In this document: positions 4,047-52,945 of the stretch, piece after piece | Numbering within the stretch: the stretch's first letter is position 1 | How the letters are laid out: every line of letters begins with the position of its first letter | NCBI GenBank assembly: GCA_963706325.1 | Contig: CAVPLT010000007.1 | Span: forward strand, 64,001 to 128,000 | DNA from: an uncultured Nitrospiraceae bacterium | GTDB taxonomy: Bacteria; Nitrospirota; Nitrospiria; Nitrospirales; Nitrospiraceae | Direction of reading: 5' to 3' | DNA length: 64,000 nucleotides | Notes under the pieces: generated by a model | Seen by the model: the letters and a program-made list of their open reading frames with translations, nothing else | Told to the model about the DNA's origin: nothing | Database searches by the model: none | Translations under genes and position numbers: made by a program

Positions 4047-4080
4047 CGAATCGATCCTTTCCTCGCCGCCGGTTTGGCGC

Positions 4081-22806: not shown

Positions 22807-22926
22807 AGGACGTTAAGAATAGCCGTCCAGCGCGGCCGCAGCGAGTGAAGGGTCGAGGCGTACCCGCTGGGTACGTTGAGGGCCTAAACGATCAGAGAAC
22901 AAAGCTCGCGGGCTTTTGCAACATCC
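22807..22926. repeat. Palindromic intergenic repeat, family A (REP/MITE-like), copy 1
   Basis: AGGACGTTAAGAATAGCCGTCCAGCGCGGCCGCAGC...GAGGCGTACC...GGTACGTTGAG...GAGAACAAAGCTCGCGGGCTTTTGCAACATCC; similar to 32988 and 48422. Confidence 0.75.
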
Positions 22927-32060: not shown

Positions 32061-32181
32061 CGGGCAGCAGCATGCGCCCGCCGATCGGAGAGGTCAAGCG
32101 AGCAGACCTCTCCGCTTGCCTCGTCCCATCGAGAAGGGTAAGATCGGCCATACCGCCCGAACCCCACATAGAGGAGGTGTG

Positions 32182-32952
32182 ATGTCTACGACACGCGCGA
32201 CTCCCAAACGAGCCCGGATTTCCCTCGACCGCAGTATAGAACGTCTGCGCAAGCAACTCTCCGACTTGGCCACCTACTTAGGTAGAGGCCGTCCCAAGCG
32301 TGACCTGGAAGAGTTCGATCAGGAGACCGAAGACCTGCTTGCGGACGTGCTTGGAGACACGTCCGAACTGTTGGACGCCTATGAGTATGCCGAATTCGGC
32401 GAAGCGGCCGGCTTGGTGAACATGACGGACGAAGCGCCGGAGAACGCCGGTGTCGAGAGTCAGCGGCAACGGCTGCTGCAACGCAGCCGCGTGTTGGAGA
32501 GCTGTATTGCAGAATTGGAAGCTCGACGAGCCGCTGAGCCGAAACCAACTCAGGCCAGCCGGCAGGCGCTGATCGGTCCTCAGGTCGCCGAACACATGTC
32601 TGCCGATATCCGCAGCCTGTCGCAGGAGGCCAGTCTGCGTGAGGCAGGCCGGCTGATGGAGCAGCACAAGCTGGGGTCGCTGCTTCTGACGGACAATCAC
32701 GCTTATGTGGGATTCATCACCGATGCCATCCTTGCGCGCGCCGTCGTTGCCAATGGGTTGAATGCCGATACCGCCGTCAAGGTCTGTATGCGCAAGCCGG
32801 TGGTGGCGATCGCCGGCGATCGGCCCATCATCGAGGCGGTGCGCATGATGAAGGACGAAGCGACCCGGCACCTGGCCGTGACGCAAGATGGCTCGATCAT
32901 CGGGGTGATTTCGGTGTCCAATATTTTGCGGTACTACTCCGGAGTGGTCTAG
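32182..32952 (+). CDS. CBS-pair protein with an uncharacterised N-terminal helical domain
   Basis: GAGGAGG RBS; C-terminal CBS pair (VAEHMS...GSLLL...GFITD; RHLAV...GVISVSNIL). Confidence 0.85.
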   Translation: MSTTRATPKRARISLDRSIERLRKQLSDLATYLGRGRPKRDLEEFDQETEDLLADVLGDTSELLDAYEYAEFGEAAGLVNMTDEAPENAGVESQRQRLLQRSRVLESCIAELEARRAAEPKPTQASRQALIGPQVAEHMSADIRSLSQEASLREAGRLMEQHKLGSLLLTDNHAYVGFITDAILARAVVANGLNADTAVKVCMRKPVVAIAGDRPIIEAVRMMKDEATRHLAVTQDGSIIGVISVSNILRYYSGVV

Positions 32953-32987
32953 CCGAATAGTGCGAATGTCACCATGAGATGCTCAAA

Positions 32988-33108
32988 GGGATGCTCAAAG
33001 AGGCCGTTCAGCAAGGCCGCATTGACCGAGGGACTGAAGCGTACCCGTTGGGGACGTTGATGGTCCGAGCGCTGCTAGAACGACGCTGGCGGGCTTTTTC
33101 AGCATTCC
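32988..33108. repeat. Palindromic intergenic repeat, family A, copy 2
   Basis: GGGATGCTCAAAG...GTTCAGCAAGGCCGC...GCGTACC...ACGTTGA...AGAACGACGCTGGCGGGCTTTTTCAGCATTCC; the ends are inverted repeats. Confidence 0.75.
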
Positions 33109-33127
33109 ATACAAGAGGAGGTTGCCC

Positions 33128-33487
33128 ATGGGTCCGACAAAAGCCATCGTTAAGGGACTGGCACTCTATGACGCCGTCAGCGATAAACTGATACAGGATG
33201 GATTTGCGAACCGTCAGGCGCTGGATGAACACGTGAAGCATCACTATATCGCCGTGCCCGTGCTCGACAACGCCGGCATAGCATGGCAGCTTGATGGGAG
33301 GCCGGTCTATTGTCTGCATGGCGTGCGATATGAGACGGTCGACAATCAGAAGGTCCATCTCGCCCGTTGCCCGGATTGCGGCGGCATGGGTATTCGCGCG
33401 GACGAACTCACGGTCGAATCGGATTGCATTCGATGCACCGCCTGCGGTCACGAATTCGATGCGCGGTTAGAGATGATGGAGACGTAG
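33128..33487 (+). CDS. Hypothetical protein with a C-terminal zinc ribbon
   Basis: AGAGGAGG RBS; CPDC...CTAC. Confidence 0.75.
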   Translation: MGPTKAIVKGLALYDAVSDKLIQDGFANRQALDEHVKHHYIAVPVLDNAGIAWQLDGRPVYCLHGVRYETVDNQKVHLARCPDCGGMGIRADELTVESDCIRCTACGHEFDARLEMMET

Positions 33488-33650: not shown

Positions 33651-33827
33651 ACTGGGCATTCTTGTTGCTCGCCTCCTACGTGAGGAAACCAAGAAGAAGT
33701 ACACAAGCCAGGCTTGTAACGAGGTATACTCCGTTTCCGGACGGAGAGGGCTGATCGTGCGCTTCCTTCAAGCAGAGATATAGTCCGTCAGGCGGTGAAA
33801 TCGAAGAATTGGATGAGGGAGGCAGGC

Positions 33828-34373
33828 ATGGCAGGGACAGCAGTTCGTCGACGGAAAGCTCCGGTGAAGCAGAAAAAAACGACGTCCGCGCGTCGAAGGA
33901 CCAAGGCCGGATCCACCGGGCCATCCGGCGCGGTCATCGTACTGTCCGGGGCCACCGCGCTGCGCCGACAAAAGGCCGCCGAAGTGCTGGCTGCGGAGAT
34001 GCAATTGGACCTGGCCAGCGTGGATCTGTCCGCGGTCGTCAGCAAACACATCGGTGAAACCGAGAAAAATTTGACCCGCGTCTTCGACATGGCCAACCGG
34101 CATGGATCGATCCTTTTCTTTGATGAAGCGGATGCGTTATTTGGGAAACGCACCCATGTCCACGATGCCCATGGCCGTTACGCGAATGCTGAGGCGCCCT
34201 ATCTTCTGCAATGCATTGAGGATCACCAGGGACTCGTCATCCTGACGACCAATGGGAAGAGCCGCATCGAAGATGCCTTCTCGCCAGAAAAGCCGGTGAT
34301 CGTGCTGGGAGGGACAGGGAAGAAAAAGTCCAAAGTAAAAAAAAGGTCGTCGAGAAGACTTGAGAGGCGATGA
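33828..34373 (+). CDS. Degenerate AAA+ domain protein with basic tails, paralog 1
   Basis: DLSAVVSKHIGETEKNL, ILFFDEADALFGKR, ILTTN; Walker A replaced by SGATALRRQK. Confidence 0.8.
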   Translation: MAGTAVRRRKAPVKQKKTTSARRRTKAGSTGPSGAVIVLSGATALRRQKAAEVLAAEMQLDLASVDLSAVVSKHIGETEKNLTRVFDMANRHGSILFFDEADALFGKRTHVHDAHGRYANAEAPYLLQCIEDHQGLVILTTNGKSRIEDAFSPEKPVIVLGGTGKKKSKVKKRSSRRLERR

Positions 34374-34496
34374 AGCGGTTGCTGCAGGGTCTCTCGTTGC
34401 GATGCAAACCGTCGCCGTCAGATACTATCCGAAAGAATCTGTCACATTTAGGGGACGTGAAACGAAAAGGTCAGGCCAATGGGGCTTCCAGGTTTC

Positions 34497-34745
34497 CTAT
34501 GAACCTGTGGAGATGAGCGATATTTTCGAGGATCGGTCCAGTGATTTGATCGCAGCTTCCCGTTGTAATGCGGCACTCTTGTTGTCGTGATGTTCGGCGT
34601 ACCGTATCGTGAAAGGCCCACGGTGTTTGGTGTATTTCGCCCCTTTGCCGGTCGTATGAGCTTTCATCCGACGCTCTAAATCATTCGTGATCCCCGTGTA
34701 GAGACTGCCGTCAGTGCATTCCAGGATATAAACGATCCAAGTCAT
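34497..34745 (-). CDS. GIY-YIG nuclease family protein (YazA/YhbQ-like)
   Basis: VYILECTDGSLYTGITNDLERR...GAKYT...ALQREAAIK. Confidence 0.93.
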   Translation of the reverse strand: MTWIVYILECTDGSLYTGITNDLERRMKAHTTGKGAKYTKHRGPFTIRYAEHHDNKSAALQREAAIKSLDRSSKISLISTGS

Positions 34746-34964
34746 ATGGTGCGAGGCCGATGTTTCCTGGTGCGCTCTTGCGCGCTCACATTACTTTGTG
34801 TCGACGGGCTGGGGCGATGATAGCGTAAGCATGGCAGGGGAACAATGGTCTACGATGAGGATGGTAAGGGGGGCCTCTGGCATAAGCCATTCTGCTGCAG
34901 TCAGAAGTAAATGTCGCGCGCGCCCCTTTGATGTTCTCCCGCGGGGTCTGCTCACGCTCCGTTG

Positions 34965-34994
34965 TTGACAGGCCTGACCGAACCCACGTAGCGT
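34965..34994 (+). promoter_or_regulatory. Putative sigma70 promoter, possibly leaderless
   Basis: TTGACA-N18-TAGCGT ending 9 nt before ATG 35004; no obvious RBS. Confidence 0.45.
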
Positions 34995-35003
34995 ATTTCT
35001 TTC

Positions 35004-35357
35004 ATGTCTTGTAACGCATTGGTTGATCAGGAACTCCGCGCGGCAGAAGTGGCCTGGAAAGCCGGCAATGAGGGCAAGGCGAGGGTGTGCGCTCGGCGCG
35101 CGGTCGCCAGAGCCGCCGAATCGTGGCTGGTGCGCCTAGCCAAGCCACCTGGGCGGGGGGATGTCATGGACCAGCTTCGGCGGATTCTGCAGAACACAAC
35201 CTTCCCTCTTTCCGTTCGGCAGGCGGCAGAACGACTGAGTACGGCCGTGACCAAACGGCAGGCCGAGCCGTTTACGGTCGATCCCATCAGTGACGCGAAT
35301 ATCGTCATTGCGCATCTGGCGAACGAGACGAGGCCCAAAGGCTTTCGTGAGGATTGA
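35004..35357 (+). CDS. Hypothetical protein
   Basis: GNEGKARVCARRA motif; promoter directly upstream. Confidence 0.7.
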   Translation: MSCNALVDQELRAAEVAWKAGNEGKARVCARRAVARAAESWLVRLAKPPGRGDVMDQLRRILQNTTFPLSVRQAAERLSTAVTKRQAEPFTVDPISDANIVIAHLANETRPKGFRED

Positions 35358-35358
35358 C

Positions 35359-35910
35359 GTGGAGGGAATACTGTCATCAGAGTCCTTGCGATCGCCGGCA
35401 GAGCTTCAGAATCGGAGCATTGTGGTCATTCTGGTCATGGGCGTAGCCGGAGCGGGGAAAACGACGATCGGTCGTTGCTTGGCGGACGAATTAGGTTGGC
35501 AGTTCTCAGATGGGGATGACTTTCATCCGGCGGCAAATATCGAAAAGATGCGACAAGGGCAGGCGCTCACCGATGCCGATCGCCAGCCGTGGCTCGAGCG
35601 GATGCATTCCGCCATTGTCGATCGGATCACCAGAAATCAACCGGCGGTCCTGGCTTGCTCGATCTTAAAGGCGCGGTACCGAGAGATCATCGAGGCCGGT
35701 TGTAACCATCACATACGATTGGTCTATCTCAAGGGCACCATGAATGTCTTTCGTGAGCGCCTCGCTCATCGCGTCGAACACTTTATGCCACAGGAACTCT
35801 TGGCCAGCCAATTCGCTATCCTAGAGGAACCGGCCGATGCGCTCGTCGTCAATGCGGCGCTTCCGCCGCATGAAATCGTCCGGCAAATTCGCGACCAACT
35901 CGGGTTGTGA
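35359..35910 (+). CDS. gntK: Gluconokinase (GntK/IdnK family); start uncertain
   Basis: VMGVAGAGKTT, DGDDFHPAANIEKM, LTDADRQPWL, HFMP..LLASQF..LEEP. Confidence 0.92.
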   Translation: MEGILSSESLRSPAELQNRSIVVILVMGVAGAGKTTIGRCLADELGWQFSDGDDFHPAANIEKMRQGQALTDADRQPWLERMHSAIVDRITRNQPAVLACSILKARYREIIEAGCNHHIRLVYLKGTMNVFRERLAHRVEHFMPQELLASQFAILEEPADALVVNAALPPHEIVRQIRDQLGL

Positions 35911-36027
35911 GTCCACGTCAAACACCCGAGACATTCAGAGAGGGTGCCCCTTTCCCTCTTCCCTCTAAAAGCTCGACCGAGGCAGCCGTTTCCAAGGCAC
36001 ACCGGCCACGTCCTCTTACGGTCATGG

Positions 36028-36387
36028 TCACTCCTTCACATAGTGTACGCGCACGGAATCGATCAGGCCGTCGTCATCGACGGTCATCATCTCCGCCGCC
36101 AGCAGCCCGTTGACACTGCGATAATACAGCAGCATGCTATCGATGCCGAGGAGGATACGTATCAGCTCGAATCGCAGATGGGGGTAGGCTTGGAGTCCGT
36201 TCTGGAAATACTCTTTCAATGCCTCGCGTCCATGGATCGTTCCGGACGATTCTCCGGCGAGAGCCTGTACGAACGGGCTGGTAAACTTCACATTCGTCGC
36301 ATAATGTTGCACGATCGCGTCGAGGTCATGCCGGTTCCAAGCTGTGATCCAAGCCTGGGCCAGACCGATCGCTTGTTCTTCGTTCAT
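36028..36387 (-). CDS. SnoaL-like / NTF2 family protein
   Basis: WITAWNRHDLDAIVQHY...FTSP...GREALKEYF. Confidence 0.88.
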   Translation of the reverse strand: MNEEQAIGLAQAWITAWNRHDLDAIVQHYATNVKFTSPFVQALAGESSGTIHGREALKEYFQNGLQAYPHLRFELIRILLGIDSMLLYYRSVNGLLAAEMMTVDDDGLIDSVRVHYVKE

Positions 36388-36535
36388 CTCCCGGGCCTTT
36401 CGACAGCAGACTATTGGATGTTGTTGAGAGTACGGCAGACGATGGATGGCGAGCAAGGCCTTCTACGCATGAATTGCAGATCGTGACGTATCTTTTGGCC
36501 CGGCTACCATTGCGGAATATGCTCCCATCTCTCTA

Positions 36536-37021
36536 ATGATCAAGCCTTCTTCTCACAGCGGTATTCCCGTCATCGCCCTGGTCACATTATGGAAGGCGTT
36601 CGTCCTATTGTTCGTGGGGGCAGGGCTGCTTCGGCTGCTGGATGCCGAGATCGCAACGTTTTTAGATCCTGTCATGGATATTTTTCATCTCCAGGTTCAT
36701 ACACGGCTCATCCATTCATTCCTCTTGAAGCTCACGGCATTGTCGCCTCATCACGTGGTTCTGATGGCGGAGGTGAGCCTGCTGTATGCGGCATGGTTAT
36801 GTGTCGAAGGATTCGGTCTGTGGGTCGAGGCTCCCTGGGCGGCATACATGACCGTGATTTCCACCAGCCTTTTTCTGCCCGTTGAATTTCACGACGTGAT
36901 TCGGCATCTCACGGCGCTGCGTGTGGCGGTATTTTCCCTCAACGTAGCGATCGTGGTCTACCTCGTTGCTCTGTTGGGTGGCGAGCGATCCAGTACCCGT
37001 GAAAACTTCTTCCCAGGCTGA
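36536..37021 (+). CDS. DUF2127 family membrane protein
   Basis: YAAWLCVEGFGLW...WAAY.TVISTS.FLPVE...NVAIVVYL. Confidence 0.82.
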   Translation: MIKPSSHSGIPVIALVTLWKAFVLLFVGAGLLRLLDAEIATFLDPVMDIFHLQVHTRLIHSFLLKLTALSPHHVVLMAEVSLLYAAWLCVEGFGLWVEAPWAAYMTVISTSLFLPVEFHDVIRHLTALRVAVFSLNVAIVVYLVALLGGERSSTRENFFPG

Positions 37022-37104
37022 TCCCTAGTTGCGTCCGCGTGGTTCGAGCGGCAGAGTGTCGTCATACTCTTTGGGGGTGTCCACCTTGAGGAAGGAGCGG
37101 AGCG

Positions 37105-38175
37105 ATGGATGGGACAAGACAACCGGGACGTATCTGGTCCAGGACACTCGATCGTCGGCAACTGTTGAAAACTCTTGGCGTGGTCGGCTCGGTACTGGCT
37201 CTGGACGGCCCCGCCAGGGTGGCTCGAGCCTGGGCCGGCGGGCAGATGCAGCCGGCGCCCGCAGGTAGCCAACCGGGCGCCCTACCTCGGCGCATGCTCG
37301 GAAGAACCGGAGTGGAAGTCTCCGCACTGTGCTTTGGGGGTGCTCATCTCGGTCGGATCGACGGGGAGGCTGAGGCCATTCGCGTGTTACACGAAGCCAT
37401 CGATGCGGGCATGACCTTTCTCGACAATGCCTGGGAATACAACCATGGCGTCTCCGAGGAACGGATGGGGAAAGCGCTGCAGGGCCGACGACAGCAGGTG
37501 TTCTTGATGACAAAGGTATGTTCACACGGACGAAGCAAGCAGGTTGCGATGCAACAACTTGAAGAGTCGCTCCAACGATTGCGAACCGATCACATTGATC
37601 TTTGGCAGATTCACGAAGTGATTTACGCCAATGACCCCGATCGACATTTCGCCCCCGGCGGTGTGATCGAGGCTATGCTGGACGCGAAGCGGCAAGGCAA
37701 AGTCCGATTTCTCGGGTTCACGGGCCACAAAGACCCTGCGATCCATCTCAAGATGTTGCAGCATGACTTTCCTTTCGACACCTGTCAGTTGCCGTTGAAC
37801 GTATTTGATGGGACCTACCGGAGTTTCGAGCAGGCGGTATTGCCGGTATTGAATGAGCGAGGTATCGCGCCGCTGGCGATGAAATCGTTGAGCGGAAACG
37901 GGGATGCCATCAAACGCGGCGTCGTCACTCTCGATGAAGCTCTGCGGTATGTCTTGAGCCTTCCGGTGGCGACCGTGGTCAGCGGAATCGATTCGCGTGA
38001 AGTCCTCCGGCAGAATCTGGCGATTGCGCGTGCCTTCACCCCGATGACTGTCGCCGAAATGGAAACGTTACGGGCCCGCATGGCGCCGTACGCGAGGGAG
38101 GGCCAATTTGAACTGTTCAAATCTTCCAATCGATTCGACGGACAGCTTGGGCGGGAACAACAGGCGCGTTCTTGA
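37105..38175 (+). CDS. Aldo/keto reductase with a Tat-like signal peptide
   Basis: DRRQLLK twin-arginine motif; LGRTGVEVS, FLDNAWEY, FLMTK, DHIDLWQIH. Confidence 0.9.
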   Translation: MDGTRQPGRIWSRTLDRRQLLKTLGVVGSVLALDGPARVARAWAGGQMQPAPAGSQPGALPRRMLGRTGVEVSALCFGGAHLGRIDGEAEAIRVLHEAIDAGMTFLDNAWEYNHGVSEERMGKALQGRRQQVFLMTKVCSHGRSKQVAMQQLEESLQRLRTDHIDLWQIHEVIYANDPDRHFAPGGVIEAMLDAKRQGKVRFLGFTGHKDPAIHLKMLQHDFPFDTCQLPLNVFDGTYRSFEQAVLPVLNERGIAPLAMKSLSGNGDAIKRGVVTLDEALRYVLSLPVATVVSGIDSREVLRQNLAIARAFTPMTVAEMETLRARMAPYAREGQFELFKSSNRFDGQLGREQQARS

Positions 38176-38276
38176 ATGTCATCGCACGCTCATCAGTCAC
38201 CCCGGCCAGGGGAATCCCTAGCTGCCCAACTTGGAAGAGAGGGATATACAGAGATTAACAGTGGAGGAGATACGCC

Positions 38277-38669
38277 ATGACTGAAGTCAATTCAATGTAT
38301 CACGCCCGGATGCGGAGCGATGACCTCAAAGCTCAGATCGACAGGCTCGAAGGCCTAGCACACCATACCGTGGTGAATCCGACATTCGATGAGTTTGACA
38401 CGGAAACGGAAGAGATCCTGATCAAAATTTACGGCGCAGACCACAAGTACATCGAATCCTATAAATACGCCACCCTGGGCGAAGCCGAAGCGATGGTGAA
38501 TTTGCCGGAATCCGCGCAGGAACCCCTGACGCGGGACATTCCGAAAAAAGGGCTACAGCAGCGCCGGCAGGTATTGCAGGGCATTTTGGGCGATCTGCAG
38601 GGCCTTGAAACACAAGAGGCTGAGCTGCTCACCGGAGAAGATCGCGAAGATCCTCCTGGACCAAGCTGA
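38277..38669 (+). CDS. Hypothetical protein, homologous to the N-terminal domain of the CBS protein at 32182
   Basis: GGAGGAG RBS; FDEFDTETEEIL...YKYATLGEAEAMVNL...LQQRRQVL. Confidence 0.75.
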   Translation: MTEVNSMYHARMRSDDLKAQIDRLEGLAHHTVVNPTFDEFDTETEEILIKIYGADHKYIESYKYATLGEAEAMVNLPESAQEPLTRDIPKKGLQQRRQVLQGILGDLQGLETQEAELLTGEDREDPPGPS

Positions 38670-38859
38670 ATTGATTGCGCCGAATAACCGGGCATGGAGG
38701 TGGTGACCGCCGGGTTGTCGTGTTCAACGCGGTCACTGCCTTCGCGAGCCTGCGTTTTACAAAACTTCATCTCATCTATTCCCCCCCGGCGATCCCACAC
38801 TAGCTAACGCATACTACTAGGGGTCTGCGTTATCTTTCCTGACAGAAAATAGGCGCCTC

Positions 38860-40092
38860 CTACGGGGTCAGTAGACTCTTGAGCGGTATGGTCGGATCCT
38901 GCAATGAGGTCTCTCGGCCTGTGAGATCAGTTTTATTCCTGATGAACTTTTGCAGAGGCGGAAGGTCTTTGTTGTTTGCGTTGATAGCAAAGTAAGCCAT
39001 GAGCCGGTGTTGCTTGAGGTAGAGGATGATGCATGACAGGTCATCCAACTTTCCACGGAGCAGCATCTCGTCATGCTCCTTTTCGTCGCCGGCGAATTCG
39101 AGATGCAGGTCGAAGATGTCGGACCAGACATAGGTCAGGAGATCATAGGGGCGGCGCGCGCCGGTCATATTCTGGGCCGCGAGCTGGCCGCTGTATTCGG
39201 CGTGGCCCCAATGTTCAACTCGACGGCGCTTGCCGAACAGGGGATCGACATAGTTCGCGACATCCCCGGCCGCATAAATGCCCGACTGGGAGGATTCTAG
39301 ATACTCATCGACCACGATGCCATTGTCCACAGTAAGTCCCGCCTGTCGCGCCAATTCTACGTTGGGCGCGATCCCGATGCCGATGCAGACGAAGTGACAG
39401 GGCAAGACGGCGCCTGACTTGAGGCGGACCGAAAACCTCTCGTTTTGCCGCTGGATCTCCGTCACGGACTCGGCGGTGCGAAAGGCGATACCTTTGGCGG
39501 CGCAATGTTCCTGGATCGCGCGGGCGAGTGATTCGTCGGCAAAGCGTGGCCAAATGTGCGGGCCTGTTTCGACGACCGTCACCTGCACCCCGCGTTGAGC
39601 CAGCGACGCCGCAACTTCCAATCCAATGAATCCGGCGCCGATGAGTACCGCGAACGAACCCGGCGTCGCTGCGGCGGCAAGTGCCACGGAATCGTTCAGC
39701 GTTCGAAGGTAGTGAACCCCGGGAAGGTCGGCGCCCGGTATCTTGAGCTGCACCGGTCGGCCGCCCGTAGCGACCAACGCTTTGTCGAAGCGCAGTTGGT
39801 CGCCATTGTCGAGCGTCGCCGTTTTGGCGGCAGGATCGAGCGTCGTGACCGCTGTGCCTAGTTTTAGCTCGATCTTCTGCTCGTCGTAAAAGGAGGGCTC
39901 ATCGAAAAAGACTTTTTCCTTCGGCATCTCGCCGCGCAGGAAATCCTTTGAAAGCGGGGGATGATCATAGGGAGGATGCGGATCGTCCGTCGCCAGGGTG
40001 ATGGTTGCCTGCGGATCGAGTTGCCGCAGCCGTTTAGCCGCTTGGCTGGAGGCCAGGCCTCCGCCGATAAGCAGATATTTCATAGGATCCAT
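38860..40092 (-). CDS. FAD/NAD(P)-dependent oxidoreductase (ferredoxin reductase-like)
   Basis: IGGGLAS, PYDHPPLSK, ATGG, IGAGFIGLE, IYAAGD, RVEHW. Confidence 0.92.
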   Translation of the reverse strand: MDPMKYLLIGGGLASSQAAKRLRQLDPQATITLATDDPHPPYDHPPLSKDFLRGEMPKEKVFFDEPSFYDEQKIELKLGTAVTTLDPAAKTATLDNGDQLRFDKALVATGGRPVQLKIPGADLPGVHYLRTLNDSVALAAAATPGSFAVLIGAGFIGLEVAASLAQRGVQVTVVETGPHIWPRFADESLARAIQEHCAAKGIAFRTAESVTEIQRQNERFSVRLKSGAVLPCHFVCIGIGIAPNVELARQAGLTVDNGIVVDEYLESSQSGIYAAGDVANYVDPLFGKRRRVEHWGHAEYSGQLAAQNMTGARRPYDLLTYVWSDIFDLHLEFAGDEKEHDEMLLRGKLDDLSCIILYLKQHRLMAYFAINANNKDLPPLQKFIRNKTDLTGRETSLQDPTIPLKSLLTP

Positions 40093-40348
40093 AACAACAT
40101 CACCTCTTGACTAGGGCAAAGTCGCAGCATACTCCCTTGAGCGATGAAATTCCGCTGAGTGGTCCTTGGGCAGGCGCTTCGTGAGATCCTGCTGTTTTCC
40201 TTCTGTCGCAATGTGTTATACACTACCTGTTTCTCCAGCCCGTAATTCTTGTTTCACGTTCGGTTTTTCGTACCATTTCAAACTTTGCCGGATTGCACGA
40301 TCGCCCGACGATCAGCTCCGACTAGCTCAATAGGGAGAATGTCATAGG

Positions 40349-41032
40349 ATGAGTAAGAAGGAAATCGACGCGGCGCAGCGATTGATGAGCCTCATGTTCA
40401 AGGCGCATCCTTGGCACGGGGTGTCCATGGGCGACCATGCGCCTGACGTCGTGACAGCGTACATTGAAATTGTGCCCACCGACACGGTGAAGTATGAAGT
40501 CGACAAGGCCAGCGGATTTCTCAAGGTGGACCGTCCGCAACGATTCTCGAATTTCTGCCCGGTGTATTACGGCCTTATTCCGCAAACCTACTGCGGTGAG
40601 GGTGTCGCCAGGCTCTTTGCAACACGCGCCAACCGGCCGGACATGATCGGCGACGGCGATCCATTGGACATCTGCGTGCTGACTGAGAAAACCATTCCCC
40701 ATAGCGATATTTTGTTGACGGCCCTGCCGATCGGCGGGCTGAGCATGGCGGATAACGGCGAGGCGGACGACAAGATCATCGCAGTCATGCGAGACGATGC
40801 CGTGTATGGCAGGTATACCGATCTCAAGGACTGCCCGATGACGCTCCTCGATCGGCTACAGCATTATTTTCTGACCTATAAACATGCGCCCGGATCGACG
40901 CAGCACAAGGTCGAAATCACGAGCATGTATGGGCGAGAAGAGGCGCTGAACGTCATTCGCACGAGTCACGAAGATTACAAGAAAAAATTTCCCGAGCTGG
41001 AATCCATGTGGCCAGCCGCCATGAAATCCTAA
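40349..41032 (+). CDS. ppa: Inorganic pyrophosphatase (family I)
   Basis: HPWH, KYEVDK, YGLIPQT, DGDPLD, DNGEADDK, YFLTYK. Confidence 0.93.
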   Translation: MSKKEIDAAQRLMSLMFKAHPWHGVSMGDHAPDVVTAYIEIVPTDTVKYEVDKASGFLKVDRPQRFSNFCPVYYGLIPQTYCGEGVARLFATRANRPDMIGDGDPLDICVLTEKTIPHSDILLTALPIGGLSMADNGEADDKIIAVMRDDAVYGRYTDLKDCPMTLLDRLQHYFLTYKHAPGSTQHKVEITSMYGREEALNVIRTSHEDYKKKFPELESMWPAAMKS

Positions 41033-41100
41033 CCGCATAGAGAAGATGTCGCAGATCTTGAACGGCCGCTAGCACCACCAAGAAAGGTTTATCCCACCTC

Positions 41101-42831
41101 ATGAAACACACCACGACGCATCCCCAGACGGAACCAGCAGCCAAAGGGTTCTCCCCCGGTTTTGCCGCGCTCGGGTTGGAGGCCTCGCTCCTCGCGACCC
41201 TTGAAGCCTTGGGCTATGAGGAGCCGACCCCGATTCAACGTGAAGCCATCCCCCCGCTGTTGGAAGGACGTGATCTGCTGGGCCAGGCCGCGACGGGAAC
41301 CGGCAAAACCGCCGCGTTCGCTCTGCCGTTGCTGCAGCGCATCGCCCATGGTCCGCGAAATCGTCCCACCGCGCTCGTGCTCGTGCCGACCAGGGAATTG
41401 GCCGTGCAGGTGAGTGAGGCAGTGCAACGCTACGGCAAGGAACTGCGGATCAGCGTGCTGGCGTTGTACGGCGGACAGGCGATGGGACCACAACTGCAGG
41501 CGCTCCGTCGCGGAGTGGAGGTCATCGTGGCGACCCCGGGGCGAGCCTTGGACCATCTGCGTCGCAAGACATTGAAATTGGCTGATCTCCAGGTCGTCGT
41601 GCTCGATGAGGCCGATGAAATGCTCGACATGGGTTTCGCGGACGACCTCGATGCCATTCTCGAACAAACTCCGGCGACCAAACAGACCGCGCTTTTTTCG
41701 GCGACTATGCCGCCGCGTATTGCCTCCATTGCCCGCCGACATTTGAAGAATCCGGTGGACGTGACGATTGCCCGCGAACCGGTCAAGGCGGGCGCGGCGC
41801 CGCGCGTGCAGCAGGTCGCCTATGTAGTGGCGCGGCAACATAAGGTGTCGGCCCTGGCCCGCGTGTTGGATATCGCGACGCCTAAGTCCGCCCTCGTCTT
41901 CTGCCGAACGCGTTTGGAAGTCGATGAAGTCACCGCGGCGCTGAATAGCCGTGGGTATCGCGCCGAAGCCATTCACGGCGGTATGAGCCAGGTGCAGCGA
42001 GATCGCGTCATGCAAGCCTTTCGATCCGGGCAAACCGAGCTGCTGGTGGCAACCGATGTGGCGGCGCGAGGGTTGGATATCCCTTCCGTTTCCCATGTGA
42101 TCAATTACGATCTTCCCTCCTCACTGGAGGTCTACGTCCACCGTATCGGGCGGACGGGACGGGCGGGACGAGAGGGCGCCGCGATGACGATCATCGAGCC
42201 GCGTGAACAACGGTTCTTGAGAAGCGTCGAGCAACATACCAAAGCAAAGATCACAGTTTCCCCCGTGCCGTCTCTCGGTGATTTGCTGGCCAAACGTCTG
42301 GAGCGCACCAAAACCGCCATCCAAGAAACTCTGCAGGCCGGTGAGCTGGAGGATTTTCGCCGGGTCGTACAGGCTCTGGCAGGATCGGCCGACCCGGCGG
42401 ACATCGCTGCTGCCGCGGTCAAGTTGGTCTACCGGTCGCATGGTGGAGAGCGCGAGGAGGAAGAGATTCCCGATGGATCGTTACGGACGCCGGAACCCTA
42501 TCGCTCTTCGCGTCCTTCCTACGGATCGGCGGGCCAGCAGGGGGATCGTGGGCGTGCGCCACGAGGGGGGCCTAGTCGTGGTGGCCGGGCAGCCGGTACC
42601 GTGCGGGTGTATGTGGGCGCCGGGCGAGCCGCCGGCATCCGGCCAGGCGATCTGGTCGGCGCCATTGCCAATGAAGCAGGCGTGCCTTCGCGCATGATCG
42701 GTGCGATCGAGGTCGAGGATCGATTTTCCTTGGTAGATGTGCAGGAAGCGGCGGCTCGACAAATCATTGAAGCGCTCGGGCGGACGCGCATCAAAGGACA
42801 GAAGGTCGCGGTGCGACTGTTTACGGATTGA
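41101..42831 (+). CDS. deaD: DEAD-box RNA helicase DeaD/CsdA with a DbpA-type RNA-binding domain
   Basis: PTPIQ, ATGTGKT, PTRELA, DEAD, SAT, ARGLD, HRIGRTGRAG; C-terminal IRPGDLVGAIANE. Confidence 0.93.
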   Translation: MKHTTTHPQTEPAAKGFSPGFAALGLEASLLATLEALGYEEPTPIQREAIPPLLEGRDLLGQAATGTGKTAAFALPLLQRIAHGPRNRPTALVLVPTRELAVQVSEAVQRYGKELRISVLALYGGQAMGPQLQALRRGVEVIVATPGRALDHLRRKTLKLADLQVVVLDEADEMLDMGFADDLDAILEQTPATKQTALFSATMPPRIASIARRHLKNPVDVTIAREPVKAGAAPRVQQVAYVVARQHKVSALARVLDIATPKSALVFCRTRLEVDEVTAALNSRGYRAEAIHGGMSQVQRDRVMQAFRSGQTELLVATDVAARGLDIPSVSHVINYDLPSSLEVYVHRIGRTGRAGREGAAMTIIEPREQRFLRSVEQHTKAKITVSPVPSLGDLLAKRLERTKTAIQETLQAGELEDFRRVVQALAGSADPADIAAAAVKLVYRSHGGEREEEEIPDGSLRTPEPYRSSRPSYGSAGQQGDRGRAPRGGPSRGGRAAGTVRVYVGAGRAAGIRPGDLVGAIANEAGVPSRMIGAIEVEDRFSLVDVQEAAARQIIEALGRTRIKGQKVAVRLFTD

Positions 42832-42990
42832 GAGCAGGAGTGAGGACCGCAAAGGAGGGACATCGTGCCGCATCATGGGGGCGAGCCTGTTGTTCTAGGT
42901 TTCCCTACTCCTAGGGAGAAAGCGAGATGTCCGTGAAGCCAGGGTGGTTCCTAGTTTCCTAGGTTTGAAGTATCCGGCTAGTATCACGAC

Positions 42991-43326
42991 ATGTTGCCTC
43001 GATTCCTCAAAGCTCTTCTTCAGACCCCCGCCTGTGTAGCATGCAGTGAACATGGAGCGACGCGAGGTTTATTGTGTGCCGATTGCCACCTCGGCGAACC
43101 GTTTTCGGCCGCGACTCAGTTACTATCCCGCGAAGTGGATTGCGTATGTGCACACGATTACCAGCTTGAGACTGTGGGCGGCGTGTTTCTTACCGGCGCA
43201 TATGTATGCCGCCTTTGTAGTGACAGAATAGGAATGTCCCAAGAGCAGTTTCATCGCCACGCTGACTATCCACGGCATTACCAGGAGGGCGGACACATCG
43301 CGTACCCGGAGCGCGACCGCCATTAA
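42991..43326 (+). CDS. Hypothetical Cys-rich protein
   Basis: CVAC, CADC, CVCAH, CRLC. Confidence 0.5.
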   Translation: MLPRFLKALLQTPACVACSEHGATRGLLCADCHLGEPFSAATQLLSREVDCVCAHDYQLETVGGVFLTGAYVCRLCSDRIGMSQEQFHRHADYPRHYQEGGHIAYPERDRH

Positions 43327-43674
43327 CAGGGAACAATCCACACGAGGTCCTGCAACTGTGGGGGGATCCGATTCTTACATCTCTCGATCCAGGCAAACCG
43401 GAAGTGCGTTCACCAGCTATACCGGCGGTACCGTATCTCGCCCCTCAATGTAAGGATTGCGTTTACGCTCCGGCTTAAGCGCGAAGTCTGCTACTCTGCT
43501 ACCTAACGTGCGATGGTGACTCCGCGGTGACGGCGAACCATGACCCTGCTTATGGAGGGGACTCCTGAGAAATCGACTGGGGAAGCTGCACTGCACGGCC
43601 CTGTAGACGTTCCAGCCACGAGAGTTAGAGTCTTCACGGGTTCGGCTGGCTCAGCAGTCGACGAACGACCCTTT

Positions 43675-44292
43675 ATGCCACCCACAGACACTTCAGAGGA
43701 AAGGCCCGCATATCGCGCTGCTGGACTAACGCTTCTGTTTCGCAGTCATTTACTTCTCATCATCTTAAACATCGGCCTTGTCTTAGCTATCTTTTTTCTC
43801 GATGTCTCTATCGCCACTGACATCGCGATTGGCATGCTCTATGTCGCGCCTGTGGCCTGGATGGCGCTGTGGTCTTCTAAACATGATACGCCTCTCATGG
43901 TGACCACGGCGGTCGGATGTACCGTCCTCAGCATCGTGGCGTTCCTGCTTCATCCGGCAGACAATCTTTGGATCGGGTTCATCAACCGTATTATGGCTTG
44001 TTTCATGATCTGGTTAACGACTGTCCTCTCGATTACACGGAAACGCGCAGAGGAGGAAACGAAGACTCTTCGCGGCTTTCTGCCGATTTGCTCCTATTGC
44101 AAAAAAATCCGGGACAACACTGGCTATTGGGAACGCATGGAGGTCTACATTTCCGCCAATTCACAGGCCCACTTCAGTCACGGCATCTGTCCTGAATGCG
44201 GAGAAGAACACTTCCCGGCGATCTACCGGGCGGACCACACCGAAGGCTCAGGCGGACAAGGTGCGAGGGATCTCAAGAGTTCTGCGCCATAG
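43675..44292 (+). CDS. Four-TM protein with a C-terminal PICxxCKKIR...HGICPxC module
   Basis: Hydrophobic sensor-like region, then LRGFLPICSYCKKIRD..GYWERMEVYI...FSHGICPEC. Confidence 0.75.
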   Translation: MPPTDTSEERPAYRAAGLTLLFRSHLLLIILNIGLVLAIFFLDVSIATDIAIGMLYVAPVAWMALWSSKHDTPLMVTTAVGCTVLSIVAFLLHPADNLWIGFINRIMACFMIWLTTVLSITRKRAEEETKTLRGFLPICSYCKKIRDNTGYWERMEVYISANSQAHFSHGICPECGEEHFPAIYRADHTEGSGGQGARDLKSSAP

Positions 44293-44529
44293 TATTCATT
44301 TCCAACTTCCAGGCCTCAAAGCTGTACCGGTTTCCCAGTCGAGTACACCGCAACATTGCGCAAGTTCCTCTTTCCTCACCAGAGACGTACTCCGGCGTAC
44401 CCAAGCGTTGCCGAGCCCCTGCATCCAAGCGTGCTACAAATCTGTTGCCATGCCATGCTGCATATTTTTTTCGCTCGGCTTCCGCTGACAGGCGTTCCAT
44501 GCCGTCATTTGATAATGATAGGATGACAA

Positions 44530-45987
44530 ATGTCCGCATCCCATACCACCGTCACGACAAGTATTCCCCAACGCATGGATCGCTTGCCGTGGTCGCGCTG
44601 GCATTGGCTGGTAGTGACCGCTCTTGGAGTTACCTGGATCCTGGATGGGCTCGAGGTCTCCATTGTCGCCGCCCTCGGTCCGGTGCTCACGCTGAGCACC
44701 ACGCTGAATCTCACCGCTTCCGAAGTGGGACTCACCGCATCTGCCTATTTAACCGGATCGGTATTGGGAGCCATTGTCTTTTCGTATCTCACTGATCGTC
44801 AGGGACGAAAGAAATGGTTCATGATCACCCTTCTGCTTTATTTGGCCGCAACGGTTCTGACCGCCTTCTCCTGGAACCTGTGGAGTTTCATGTTTTTTCG
44901 TTTGCTCACCGGCGCGGGGATCGGGGGCGAATATGCGGCGATCAATTCCGCCATAGACGAGTTGATTCCGGCGCGCACTCGTGGACACACGGATCTGGCG
45001 ATCAACGGGAGTTGGTGGCTCGGTAGCGCCGCCGGTGCCGTGCTGGCGATTGTATTGTTGAATCCGCTGTTAATTCCGGAATATTTGGGATGGCGGCTGT
45101 GCTTCGGGTTTGGCGCGGTGCTCGGCGTGAGCATCCTTCTCGTCCGGCGCGTGATTCCGGAAAGCCCTCGTTGGCTCATGACCCACGGGAAAATGAAGGA
45201 AGCTGACGAGATTGTCGCTGGAATCGAAACCCGGATTCTGCAGGACAGCAGCCACACGTCGTTGCCGCAGGTTGAGGGCTCGATTACTGTCCATGCCCGC
45301 CCGCATGCGACGCTCGCCACTGTTGCGCGGGAGTTGTTCTCCACGTATCCTCGTCGCACGACATTGGGAATCGTGCTGATGGTGACGCAATCATTCATGT
45401 ACAACGCGATCTCGTTCACCTATCCCTTCGTGCTCACGAAATTTTACGCGGTCCCCAGCCATGACATCGGCTACTACATTCTCCCGTTTGCCTTCGGTAA
45501 CTTTCTGGGCCCCTTGTTGCTGGGCCGCTTTTTCGATACCATCGGCCGCAAGCAAATGATCAGCTTCACCTATGCCGTGGCGGGGTGCTTGCTGGCGGCC
45601 ACCGGCTATTTCTTTTGGCAGGGCGCCTTTACCTCCGTCACTCAGATGATGGCCTGGTCATCCGTATTCTTTTTCGCGTCCGCCGGCGCCAGCGCCGCCT
45701 ATCTGACCGTCAGCGAGATTTTTCCGATGGAGATCCGCGCGATGGCGATCGCGTTCTTCTTTGTCGTGGCGCAGGGAGCGGGGATTCTGGCTCCCTGGCT
45801 GTACGGCAAGCTGATCGAAACGTCCGCCGAAAGCGTCTTTTACGGATACTTGTTGGGAGCCGGAATGATGCTCGTGGGCGCGGTCGTGGAATTGTGGTTA
45901 GGAGTCAAAGCAGAGGGCCGATCGCTCGAACATATCGCAACGCCGCTGTCCGCACAGCCTCTCACGGAGGATGCGCCGCGCGCCTGA
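44530..45987 (+). CDS. MFS transporter (sugar/aromatic-acid type)
   Basis: RMDRLPWSRWH, TDRQGRKK, GIGGEY, PESPRWL, SEIFPMEIRA. Confidence 0.92.
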   Translation: MSASHTTVTTSIPQRMDRLPWSRWHWLVVTALGVTWILDGLEVSIVAALGPVLTLSTTLNLTASEVGLTASAYLTGSVLGAIVFSYLTDRQGRKKWFMITLLLYLAATVLTAFSWNLWSFMFFRLLTGAGIGGEYAAINSAIDELIPARTRGHTDLAINGSWWLGSAAGAVLAIVLLNPLLIPEYLGWRLCFGFGAVLGVSILLVRRVIPESPRWLMTHGKMKEADEIVAGIETRILQDSSHTSLPQVEGSITVHARPHATLATVARELFSTYPRRTTLGIVLMVTQSFMYNAISFTYPFVLTKFYAVPSHDIGYYILPFAFGNFLGPLLLGRFFDTIGRKQMISFTYAVAGCLLAATGYFFWQGAFTSVTQMMAWSSVFFFASAGASAAYLTVSEIFPMEIRAMAIAFFFVVAQGAGILAPWLYGKLIETSAESVFYGYLLGAGMMLVGAVVELWLGVKAEGRSLEHIATPLSAQPLTEDAPRA

Positions 45988-46156
45988 TCGTTGTTCCCAT
46001 TGGATACCGACGCTCACCAATATCACCCAGGATTGTGCCGGGGGAGATCCCCTTTCGGCCTGTGCGAGGGCCAGCTGTCATTGGCTATCGGGACACCGGA
46101 GAAAACTACCATGTTCACCTGTCCACGGTACGGCGAATAGGTGAGATGAGGAGCGC

Positions 46157-47710
46157 GTGACCTTTCGTCCTTGGACCGCCAGCTTGCGCGACTGGCAGAC
46201 CCGCGCCGTCGCGGACGTGTTGGCACAGCCACGTGTGGACTATCTCGTGACGGCAACGCCCGCGGCGGGGAAGACCCGCTTTGCGCTGCGCATCGCCCAT
46301 CAGTATTTGACCGATCGGGCGGCCGGTCGGGTACTCGTGATCTGCCCGACGAACCATTTGCGGACACAGTGGGCGTCAGCCGCGGGACAAGTGGGCATTC
46401 AATTGGATCCGGCGCTGTCGAATGAACAGGCCTGTGAGGCGCGCGACTATCACGGCGCGGTCGTGACGTATCAGCAGGTCTGCCTGGCGCCGGAAGTATT
46501 CCGGCGAGCCTGCCGCAACCGAAAAACCCTGGTCATTCTCGATGAGTTGCACCACGCCGGTGACGGCAAGGATTGGGGTAAGGCTCTGCGAGAATCCTTT
46601 GCTGAAGCGGTGTTTCGTCTGGCCCTCTCGGGCACGCCTTTCCGTTCGGACAATAATCCGATCCCCTATGTGCGATACGTAGATGGGGAAAGCCAGGCGG
46701 ATTTCACGTACGGCTATTCGCACTCGATCAAGGACGGGGTCTGTCGACCGATTCTCTTTCCAAGTTACGAAGGCGAACTGACATGGCTGTCGGACGGGCG
46801 TGAGCATCGTGCCACGTTTGAAGACGGATTGACCTTTGAACGCCAGCGGGAGCGGCTCAAAACGGCGCTGCTACAGGAAACCTGGCTCGATCCGGTGCTG
46901 CGCGATGCCCATACGGAGTTGCAGCGATTGCGCAAGCAGGAGCAATCGGATGCGGGCGGGCTCATTGTGACTATGAATCAGGACCATGCGCGGCAGGTGG
47001 CGGAGCTCGTCACGAAGATTACGGGGACGCGGGCCCTGGTGGCGGTGTCCGACGATCCTTCCGCCTCCAAGACCATCGAGACCTTTGCCCACCACAAAAC
47101 GCAGCAGTGGCTGGTGGCGGTGAATATGGTGAGCGAAGGGGTGGATATTCCGCGTCTCCGCGTCGGTGTGTATGCGACCAATGTGTTGACGGAGATGTAT
47201 TTTCGCCAGGTGGTCGGGCGGTTTGTGCGGGTGCAGGATAAGGTGCCGAAGCCGCAACGGGCCTGGCTCTATCTGCCCAAGGATGCGACGCTGGTGCATT
47301 TTGCCAAGCGCATCAAGGTCGAGCGGGACCATGTCCTTGAAGACATTATGCCCGCGGTGCAGCGAACGTTGTTCGGCACGGCCGCGACCTCGCTCAAGGA
47401 ATATATCCCCTTGAACGGCGTGGCCCGGCTGGATACGTTGATCGGTGTGGATGAGGGTGATCCGGCGGAAGGAATGGGACAAGCAGCAGTCGCGGAGGCG
47501 CTCCATGATCAGAAGGACAAACTGCGAGATAAGCACCGAAATCTCGTGGCCGCTGTGGCACGGAAGACAGGAGCGGATCATCGGCAGCTCAATGCGGAGT
47601 TGATTAAACGGACTGGTGGCCGCGTCGATCAGGCGACGATTCCACAATTGGAGCGGCGCATTGCCTTGTTGGAAAAGTGGCGGGAATCCGGTTTCGACCG
47701 GAAACGGTGA
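46157..47710 (+). CDS. Superfamily II DExH helicase (ResIII/XPB-like)
   Basis: LRDWQ, ATPAAGKT, DELHH, SGTPFRSD, MVSEGVDIP, QVVGRFVR. Confidence 0.88.
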   Translation: MTFRPWTASLRDWQTRAVADVLAQPRVDYLVTATPAAGKTRFALRIAHQYLTDRAAGRVLVICPTNHLRTQWASAAGQVGIQLDPALSNEQACEARDYHGAVVTYQQVCLAPEVFRRACRNRKTLVILDELHHAGDGKDWGKALRESFAEAVFRLALSGTPFRSDNNPIPYVRYVDGESQADFTYGYSHSIKDGVCRPILFPSYEGELTWLSDGREHRATFEDGLTFERQRERLKTALLQETWLDPVLRDAHTELQRLRKQEQSDAGGLIVTMNQDHARQVAELVTKITGTRALVAVSDDPSASKTIETFAHHKTQQWLVAVNMVSEGVDIPRLRVGVYATNVLTEMYFRQVVGRFVRVQDKVPKPQRAWLYLPKDATLVHFAKRIKVERDHVLEDIMPAVQRTLFGTAATSLKEYIPLNGVARLDTLIGVDEGDPAEGMGQAAVAEALHDQKDKLRDKHRNLVAAVARKTGADHRQLNAELIKRTGGRVDQATIPQLERRIALLEKWRESGFDRKR

Positions 47711-47796
47711 GCAATCGAAAGAAGGCTGAGCAAGGCCCACCGCGAAGAGCCGTCGCACGAACTCGATAAAAAGCCGATTACATAAGGGAGAGAAGC

Positions 47797-48375
47797 ATGG
47801 CTGGCAGGAAGCTGAAGAGAAAAAGTGGCGCATCGGTGAAGACAGTTGCGAAGAAGAGGATGGAGACAGTTGCGAAGAAAGGCAAGAAGAAGACCGCCAC
47901 GAAACGATCGGCTCCGGCGCAGCGGTCACGAACGACTCGCGCGAAAAAGCCCTCGGTAGCGGTCGTGGTGCTGTCCGGGTCCACCCCGCTTCGCCGCAGC
48001 AAGGCGGCTGAGTTAGTGGCCGAGGAGCTGCAGCTGGACTTGGCGAAGGTGAATCTATCCTCAGTGGTGAGCCGGTACGTCGGAGAAACCGAAAAGAACA
48101 TCAATCGGATTTTTGACGAGGCTGAACGCAGCGGGTCGATTCTGTTCTTTGATGGAGCGGATGCGCTGTTCGGCCCACATCGCGCAGGCAAGGGTGACAC
48201 GGGCCACTATGCCGATGCGGGGGCAGCCCATTTGTTGCAACGCATCGAGGCCCACAAAGGGTTGGTCATTGTAACGACCAATGGGAAAAGCAGGATCGAC
48301 CAAGCGCTGTCTCGGCAAGCAGAGGTGTCCGTGATGGTGGGCATGAAGAAGAAGCGGAAGAAAAAAACCGCCTGA
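47797..48375 (+). CDS. Degenerate AAA+ domain protein with basic tails, paralog 2
   Basis: NLSSVVSRYVGETEKNI, ILFFDGADALFG, IVTTN; Walker A replaced by SGSTPLRRSK. Confidence 0.8.
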   Translation: MAGRKLKRKSGASVKTVAKKRMETVAKKGKKKTATKRSAPAQRSRTTRAKKPSVAVVVLSGSTPLRRSKAAELVAEELQLDLAKVNLSSVVSRYVGETEKNINRIFDEAERSGSILFFDGADALFGPHRAGKGDTGHYADAGAAHLLQRIEAHKGLVIVTTNGKSRIDQALSRQAEVSVMVGMKKKRKKKTA

Positions 48376-48421
48376 CGAACCGTTGGCATGCAGGGTGGCT
48401 CGACAAGCGATGGCACGAGCA

Positions 48422-48569
48422 CAGGATGGTCCAAAAGGCTGTTCAGCGAGGCCGCAGCAAGGTCTGCGGCGCGAAGCACAATGAGCGCCACGCCTGTGCA
48501 CGCCGCCGAGAGGATGAGAGGGAGCAGTGTCTTGCGAGAACGATGCTGGGGCCCTGTTTCAGCGTCCTG
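48422..48569. repeat. Palindromic intergenic repeat, family A, copy 3
   Basis: CAGGATGGTCCAAAAGGCTGTTCAGCGAGGCCGCAGC...GCGAGAACGATGCTG...TTTCAGCGTCCTG. Confidence 0.7.
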
Positions 48570-52769: not shown

Positions 52770-52945
52770 AAGGATGGGCGGGAGGAGGGAGCCTTTCCAA
52801 GACCCGGCCGGCTCACCGTCTCGCCGGCGTGCGCAGACGTGACGCTCGTTACTCCTCGCGTCGCGCACCTCGCGCCACGCGCGGCTTAGGAAAGCCGTCG
52901 TTGGAGGCGCGCAGTGTGGGGACCACCGATTGTTGTGGCTCCGTG
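52770..52945. repeat. Intergenic repeat, family B
   Basis: Shares segments with 33510-33650 and 21314-21470. Confidence 0.55.

Follow-up and report, generated by a model that had tools for sequence, protein, structure and literature searches.

A 64,000-nucleotide stretch of the genome of an uncultured Nitrospiraceae bacterium (contig CAVPLT010000007.1 of assembly GCA_963706325.1; hereafter, the window) encodes two short, basic AAA+ proteins, copy 1 (P0001, 181 amino acids, aa) and copy 2 (P0002, 192 aa), which represent a conserved, selected family of pseudoenzymes rather than genes in decay. As a first-pass annotation of the window had proposed, both are intact open reading frames (ORFs) with a ribosome-binding site, a Shine-Dalgarno (SD)-like motif being located 5-6 nucleotides (nt) before the ATG in each case (Table 1); such a motif was found in 55 of 75 loci. 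The copies share 56% identity over 154 aa and contain Pfam AAA (PF00004) as their sole domain, with scores of 56 and 62 bits, respectively (cut-off 21.2). The sequence signature that the annotation had ascribed to both corresponds to the AAA core they have in common, except that copy 2 reads NLS instead of DLS. Their Lys/Arg-rich ends were also recognized at that stage, in agreement with isoelectric points (pI) of 10.5 and 10.8. In copy 1 a basic N-terminal tail (residues ~1-33) precedes an alpha/beta core (~34-162), which is followed by a basic C-terminal tail.

Loss of the catalytic motifs and gain of basic residues

Motif counts for close homologues refer to a set of 122 proteins, made up of copies 1 and 2 plus the top 120 of 6879 matches, which is hence biased toward the query. 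The Walker A sequence GESGTGKT of the parental ATPase (see below) reads GATALRRQ in copy 1 and GSTPLRRS in copy 2, a substitution without change in length; the same string replaced the motif in both proteins, as was originally read. The pattern GxxGxGK[T/S] occurs in none of the 122 proteins, where G[AS]T[AP]LRRx stands in its place; the final Gly (G6) and the Lys (K7) of Walker A are both changed to Arg in 121 of them, the remaining protein being devoid of this stretch. Among 115 representatives of the full-length relatives, 110 allowed anchoring, and GxxGxGK[TS] was kept in all of these. For Walker B, copy 1 reads FDEAD and copy 2 reads FDGAD. The replacement of DE by DG reported for copy 2 is real in this genome but not fixed, since Gly occupies the position in 76% of 21 copy 2 orthologues; the Glu is kept in 21/21 orthologues of copy 1. 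Across the homologues the Walker B Asp was retained in 121/122, the Glu in 120/122 and the sensor 1 Asn in 113/122. The AFxRR finger motif has become AFSPE in copy 1 and ALSRQ in copy 2, and a median of 23 residues follows the finger position, compared with 93 in the parent, leaving no C-terminal helical lid. The annotated loss of the arginine fingers and lid holds with the qualification that copy 2 usually retains the first Arg of the pair; the complete RR pair is present in none of the 122 homologues, the median pI of which is 10.2.

An AlphaFold2 model of copy 1, built on a 46-row alignment, displays a five-stranded alpha/beta core over residues ~34-162, with a pLDDT score (the predicted local distance difference test) mostly of 75-89 and of 50-62 over residues 101-120, disordered tails (pLDDT <50) and no helix after residue 132. 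Residues 44-58 are modelled as a helix, the start of which falls inside the old P-loop, so that the phosphate cradle would be closed. Among solved structures, AAA+ domains of the classical clade have the most similar fold (best VIA Z 12.4, root-mean-square deviation 2.8 A, 124 residues; 8rhn_K). The prediction of a four-copy complex of the core scored 0.00 (mark 0.42), which speaks neither for nor against such an assembly.

Residues R46, R47 and D99 are invariant in 46/46 aligned members. When 114 parents and sets of 37, 21 and 21 short forms were compared column by column, T43, L45, R46, R47, K49 and G143 proved to be newly fixed with respect to the parent, and K144 and R146 reached 78-100%. 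These residues cluster within the helix of the P-loop and beyond sensor 1, a location that AAA+ topology places at the former nucleotide site. Conversely, the pore-loop Tyr74 and residues 107-122 were relaxed relative to the parent, most strongly in copy 2. In the genus of the window, His takes the place of this Tyr in 81% of copy 1 proteins and the commonest residue in copy 2 is Arg (48%); many sites of pore loop 2 (residues 107-122) that are 92-100% conserved in the parent are eroded in copy 2. The sister genus (g23) keeps SKYIGETEKN, with the Tyr in 97% of its proteins. The composition of the tails (K+R 28-49%, D+E 2-4%) was maintained across 21+21+38 proteins despite the turnover of their sequence; by eye they contain no tandem KPAA repeats, scattered KKA/PAK words being observed instead. 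The lysine fraction of copy 2 ranks 4 among 2841 background ORFs of its own genome, and the top-ranked ORF in the lysine ranking of this genome encodes a strongly lysine/alanine-rich, histone H1-like protein (18% Lys). By comparison with five relatives, the final nine residues of copy 1 are frame-shifted by a 1-nt slip in an A8 run, which may be either real or a sequencing error; the C-terminal tail is basic in both frames around it.

Descent from the eCIS ATPase, selection and distribution

Judged from sequence, both proteins represent the D2 alpha/beta half of an Afp15/Pvc15-type ATPase of extracellular contractile injection systems (eCIS), as the resemblance noticed in the first-pass annotation suggested. 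The D2 domain of the parent is 51% identical to copy 1 over 148 aa and 49% identical to copy 2 over 117 aa. In relatives, the parent is a protein of 643-757 aa with WHD (PF22977) and AAA (PF00004) domains, located inside eCIS loci together with sheath, tube or CIS-tube, Pvc16, eCIS-core and baseplate genes (two loci annotated), and GxxGTGKT, FDEAD, AFxRR and the lid were all present in the 16 parent proteins examined. In a 34-row tree, copy 1, copy 2, the g13, g23 and g26 proteins and one g7 form constitute one group (96/92), separate both from the full-length proteins and from family f2's short forms. Each copy forms its own clade (100/99 for copy 1 and 100/100 for copy 2; long branches are present in this tree, and a larger quick tree agrees), indicating that the duplication is older than the genus. 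On whether both copies form a single clade, the approximately unbiased test gave a p value of 0.10 (p-AU), and the tree does not settle their mutual order. The P-loop replacement string goes back to a single ancestor that predates the duplication.

Lid-less forms occur also in genus g39, where 15 proteins of ~200 aa lost the finger pair and show a ratio of nonsynonymous to synonymous substitution rates (dN/dS) of 0.12; Walker A (GxxGxGK[TS]) is intact in 12 of them. Finger-less and lid-less AAA cores of 200 aa with an intact Walker A were noted in another Nitrospirales family (L170:6221-6826, L190-L204, L207; dN/dS 0.12). We infer that the lid and fingers were lost first and the P-loop afterwards, and that the lid-less truncation of this ATPase happened more than once. 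Short metagenomic proteins in a wider set end at the same domain boundary, with varied dead or intact P-loops and often basic ends. The stages that lead from the intact motor to a dead scaffold appear to be preserved within the Nitrospirales. The ESM Atlas lists clusters of short AAA proteins in several phyla, as leads only; when metagenome contigs were scanned by pattern for another short subgroup, 0 cases were retrieved, contexts outside Nitrospirales being nearly unseen. A co-occurrence of P-loop-intact short forms with sheath genes (6/6) was considered and rejected, since 35/50 genomes of g39 have a sheath match anyway. Most of these 35 encode sheath-like proteins of ~395 aa (e.g., G720:C1:2057632, G675:C7:1500664), and the genomes with this protein mostly lack the full eCIS ATPase. 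As a separate observation, a short AAA core is fused to a C-terminal PF07411 domain in L175:6319-7110, P0324 and P0353 (precomputed Pfam for the last two).

Codon models gave core dN/dS values of 0.063 for copy 1 and 0.068 for copy 2 (21 genomes each, leaving out copy 2 of G015, missed by the search pattern, and the frameshifted copy 1 of G010) over trees of length 6-7, in which 76/127 and 80/124 core positions, respectively, were invariant. The single copy of the g23 type showed a value of 0.165 (38 loci, chosen by their P-loop pattern, so that their P-loop invariance is circular), and the tails 0.30-0.42. Baselines from the same genomes were 0.026 for SF2, 0.036 for PPase, 0.074 for the zinc ribbon, 0.083 for GIY-YIG, 0.151 for SnoaL (4 sequences), 0.226 for a 117-aa gene and 0.013 for the parent D2 core. 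The copies are ~5 times freer than the D2 domain of the active motor, yet they are constrained like ordinary neighbours (0.026-0.226, six genes). These values, together with the complete absence of GKT from the close homologues, bear out the initial proposal of a selected, non-catalytic family. Frameshifted or stop-bearing single copies were found in G010 and G024.

With regard to expression, contigs from four RNA libraries (four studies) show depth in the bins that contain the two copies of locus L168. Copy 2 is overlain by an X7 (3829-4465) and an X9 contig (3630-4323), and part of copy 1 by an X12 contig (16919-17635); such contigs can give neither level nor strand and may hold DNA. In the transcriptome table of Nitrospira moscoviensis (PMC6606698, supplement 2), an AAA-named gene of matching length was found in none of 15 places naming "AAA", where genes under other names would be missed.

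The search for homologues across genomes advised in the first-pass annotation was performed on a draw of 161 genomes of the family. Of the 28 genomes of the window's genus (own included), 27 contain the short form, 22 contain both copies and 21 have the full-length ATPase. The sister genus has a single copy in 21/27 genomes, and a longer relative accompanies it in only 2 of those 21. In g7, g13, g26 and g37 a few short forms of greater divergence were detected, and none at E 1e-15 in most other genera. Organism-named homologues in the protein search all belonged to Nitrospira or Nitrospirota, and among the 80 loci listed in a motif scan of one genome per species, 78 were titled Nitrospira, Nitrospiraceae, Nitrospirales or Nitrospirota/Nitrospirae, the other two lying on contigs <5 kb that may be misbinned. 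In 400 genomes from the phylum of G184 (8 candidates scored per genome), one short candidate was obtained, adjoining a sheath gene. Databases label members of this family as "AAA family ATPase" or "ATP-binding protein", names that very probably misdescribe these proteins; for the proteins of loci L133 and L139, an exact look-up in the protein collection gave no entry.

The genome that contains the window (96% complete, 8 contigs) showed no full-length parent, tube, Pvc16 or baseplate gene, a lone sheath gene on contig C4 being all that was found. The latter (L169:9346-10824; G000:C4:409345-410823) encodes a tail-sheath protein of 492 aa and adjoins a tyrosinase gene, without tube or baseplate genes; close homologues (59-85%) are present in G012, G014, G171, G175, G077 and G057. 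Within the genus this lone sheath was observed in 5 of the 7 genomes without the full eCIS ATPase and in 0 of the 21 with it.

Genomic surroundings

The positions of the genes and motifs are compiled in Table 1. Copy 1 sits between TPR/CBS/zinc-ribbon genes and a GIY-YIG gene, in an order that is conserved in the genus, and copy 2 comes directly after the SF2 helicase gene in every locus long enough to show it. This helicase is ~90% identical across the genus and 82% identical in g23, with weak restriction-type family matches only. The single-copy gene of the sister genus lies near zwf, with the 117-aa gene in 15/38 loci and an RNase II/R gene in 17/38; the 117-aa gene, common to the copy 1 and g23 loci, ties them together. 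The encoded 117-aa protein falls into unnamed clusters in Nitrospirota, Chloroflexota and Ignavibacteriota and gave a sub-threshold HEPN/PaREP1 lead (0.87). RNA-handling neighbours include DeaD and the SF2 helicase in the window and the RNase II/R gene in g23. Among the window-genus and sister-genus loci examined, no eCIS gene was found beside the short form.

Table 1. Positions of the features described in the text, counted from the first nucleotide of the window
Feature	Position	Strand	Basis
Zinc-ribbon protein, usual upstream neighbour of copy 1	33122..33487	+	Pfam, locus comparison
SD-like GGAGG of copy 1	33818..33822	+	sequence
Copy 1 (P0001), lid-less AAA+ pseudo-ATPase, 181 aa	33828..34373	+	intact ORF, Pfam, model, dN/dS
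Replaced Walker A of copy 1, GATALRRQ, residues 41-48	33948..33971	+	sequence, model
Intact Walker B DE of copy 1	34122..34127	+	sequence
A8 run in copy 1, 1 base short vs relatives	34337..34344	+	comparison with 5 relatives
GIY-YIG protein, convergent downstream of copy 1	34497..34745	-	Pfam, locus comparison
117-aa protein near copy 1, also beside g23 single copy	35004..35357	+	locus comparison
SF2 helicase (ResIII/DEAD + Helicase_C), 86 nt upstream of copy 2; constant neighbour in the genus	46157..47710	+	Pfam
SD-like AAGGGAG of copy 2	47784..47790	+	sequence
Copy 2 (P0002), lid-less AAA+ pseudo-ATPase, 192 aa	47797..48375	+	intact ORF, Pfam, dN/dS
Replaced Walker A of copy 2, GSTPLRRS, residues 61-68	47977..48000	+	sequence
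Walker B DG of copy 2, catalytic Glu lost	48151..48156	+	sequence

A terminator scan found none behind copy 1 or copy 2, the counts of a promoter scan were no higher than chance and Rfam gave 0 matches across 30-54 kb of the window. An intergenic interspersed repeat of ~40-130 bp (32979-33105, 48415-48518, 52800-52900 and 22822-22926; 26-36 matches per query in the genome) explains spurious ORFs as well as the RNA-depth peaks beside the L168 genes, which fall on a genome-wide repeat. By eye, the N-terminal part of the CBS protein (32020-32952) resembles a 130-aa protein (38277-38669) in the motif FDxETEx.L...YEYA..GEA..VN..E.A, and both may possibly share an unnamed domain.

Possible functions and comparison with known systems

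Descent from the eCIS ATPase, loss of the catalytic motifs, purifying selection and persistence without eCIS are established by the evidence described above. For the present role, ATP-independent binding of a polyanion (RNA, DNA, possibly polyphosphate) is the favoured candidate, at a little under an even chance, as suggested by the relaxed pore loops, the basic residues at the old nucleotide site, the maintenance of the basic tails, the persistence of the genes without eCIS and the RNA-handling neighbours. According to this proposal, the D2 alpha/beta subdomain of a cargo-loading eCIS ATPase would have lost the N-terminal domains, the lid and the arginine fingers and then the P-loop, and the resulting domesticated pseudoenzyme would have settled among ordinary chromosomal genes of Nitrospiraceae and duplicated before the genus radiated. 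The protein would not hydrolyse ATP, nor would it normally bind it; its folded core would hold two disordered Lys/Arg tails and a new basic patch (R46, R47, K49, K144, R146) at the former nucleotide site, and it may bridge or chaperone in association with the nucleoid or with RNA. PhaF (PMC12818456) and AlgP (PMC9239181) provide precedents for basic disordered tails that bind RNA, DNA or polyphosphate. The more ambitious version, in which a part of a phage-tail-derived injection machine gave rise to a new class of nucleoid- or RNA-associated protein, its nucleotide site rebuilt as a polyanion-binding patch and its tails histone-like, is rather unlikely. Several observations weigh against polyanion binding. 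A pure scaffold would not need the Walker B Asp and the sensor 1 Asn, both of which were retained; the tails are without the regular KPAA repeats of PhaF and AlgP; the arrangement of the five basic residues as one surface patch is presumed from AAA+ topology; and the neighbours change between genera and may be there by chance. In addition, the complete genome G004 has neither copy, the helicase gene running straight to the next gene, and G001 and G007 have no copy 1, indicating that the genes are dispensable in some lineages.

Such losses, together with the broken copies in G010 and G024 and a dN/dS ~5 times that of the parent D2 core, are what would be expected of a functionless, decaying remnant of the eCIS ATPase gene. 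This explanation is very improbable and largely refuted by the selection data: it was rejected because the copies are as constrained as ordinary neighbours, and the low dN/dS over long trees, the many invariant core positions, the open frames in a gene order conserved across the genus and the frequent SD-like motifs also oppose it. A role in the eCIS, either as a subunit that regulates its ATPase or acts on it as a dominant negative, or in the handling of sheath protein, is distinctly unlikely. Its mainstay is the occurrence of some sheath gene in 27/28 genomes of the genus, to which the full ATPase in 21/28, the identity with the eCIS D2 domain (49-51%), the presence of the short form in all 7 genomes with the lone-sheath type and its overlap with a sheath gene in G397 may be added. 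The decoy or adaptor option of the first-pass annotation, which belongs here, lost weight as no parent ATPase was found in the own genome (nor tube or baseplate), in 7/28 genomes of the genus and in 19/21 sister-genus carriers, with a sheath match absent in 17/21 of these carriers (incomplete assemblies can hide one); moreover, G004 has a whole eCIS and neither copy, and the loci examined in both genera have no eCIS gene alongside.

AAA+ pore loops grip the substrate within a ring. An ATP-independent protein holdase or adaptor, in which the side of Pvc15 D2 that binds peptides was kept and the basic tails would catch acidic clients or dock on ribosomes, is unlikely; it fits g23, where SKYIGETEKN and its Tyr are retained, better than the copies in the window; both pore-loop regions are kept as well in the wider class of short forms, partly owing to search bias. 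In published work, Pvc15 D2 alone and the E555Q variant still stabilised signal-peptide cargo, ATPase activity being not measurable (PMC11495950), and, in a second report, Walker point mutations failed to abolish the unfolding read-out (PMC9054023). However, that D2 construct was missing only the N and D1 domains, hence it retained the lid, ring formation by a lid-less domain is unlikely, and in the window's genus the pore Tyr is replaced by His, Arg or Gln while pore loop 2 is eroded in copy 2. A slim chance is given to a sensor that would bind a phosphorylated ligand (ATP/ADP, pyrophosphate, (p)ppGpp or a cyclic dinucleotide) without hydrolysis, using the new arginines with the Walker B Asp and the sensor 1 Asn. 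This would explain why Asp and Asn were kept, and the invariance of R46, R47 and D99 and the newly fixed G143 are consistent with it; the P-loop glycines are gone, though, with the model helix starting inside the old loop, the lid that covers the base is absent and there is no output domain.

Polyanion binding remains the preferred proposal, and if nucleic acid is indeed bound, the family would constitute a new kind of chromatin or RNA protein derived from a secretion-system motor. In any case, these nitrifiers (nitrite-oxidising bacteria), a group of global importance, harbour a pseudoenzyme family that is under selection and undescribed, no published description having been found in the open full-text literature, a search that covered neither subscription papers nor bioRxiv supplements. 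The family also offers a rare ordered series for the death and re-use of an ATPase, and nature's own minimal construct for the question, still open for eCIS cargo loading, of what Pvc15 D2 does when ATP plays no part.

Among known systems, the anti-phage ATPase IetA (NF042959; PADLOC IetA) was the best NCBIfam and PADLOC match, through the AAA core; identity as IetAS was discarded on account of the scores (46-56 bits vs a cut-off of 510), half the length and the absence of an IetS peptidase among the neighbours examined. The copies share the alpha/beta fold of classical-clade AAA+ proteins (p97/Cdc48, Rix7/NVL, AFG2, Vps4, FtsH, Msm0858), although none of the matches listed is described as a stand-alone, lid-less, P-loop-dead domain. 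Inactive AAA modules such as the D1 of Pex1/Pex6, NSF D2 and clamp-loader delta sit inside larger rings and keep their helical domains. With the histone H1-like AlgP and PhaF, the copies have in common a disordered, Lys/Ala-rich, acid-poor tail on a small folded domain; they differ in the absence of the KPAA repeat, in tails of 12-50 aa at both ends and in a folded part that is an AAA+ core. The Afp15/Pvc15 eCIS ATPase (WHD PF22977, a degenerate D1 and an active D2, PF00004) shares GETEKN and FDEADALF with the copies, which have a quarter of its length, lack the WHD, D1, lid, P-loop and arginine fingers, have added basic tails, and are encoded outside eCIS loci, among housekeeping-type genes, being kept where eCIS is absent. 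Judged by these features, the family would qualify neither as an active AAA+ ATPase nor as an eCIS Afp15/Pvc15 protein, while descending from the latter.

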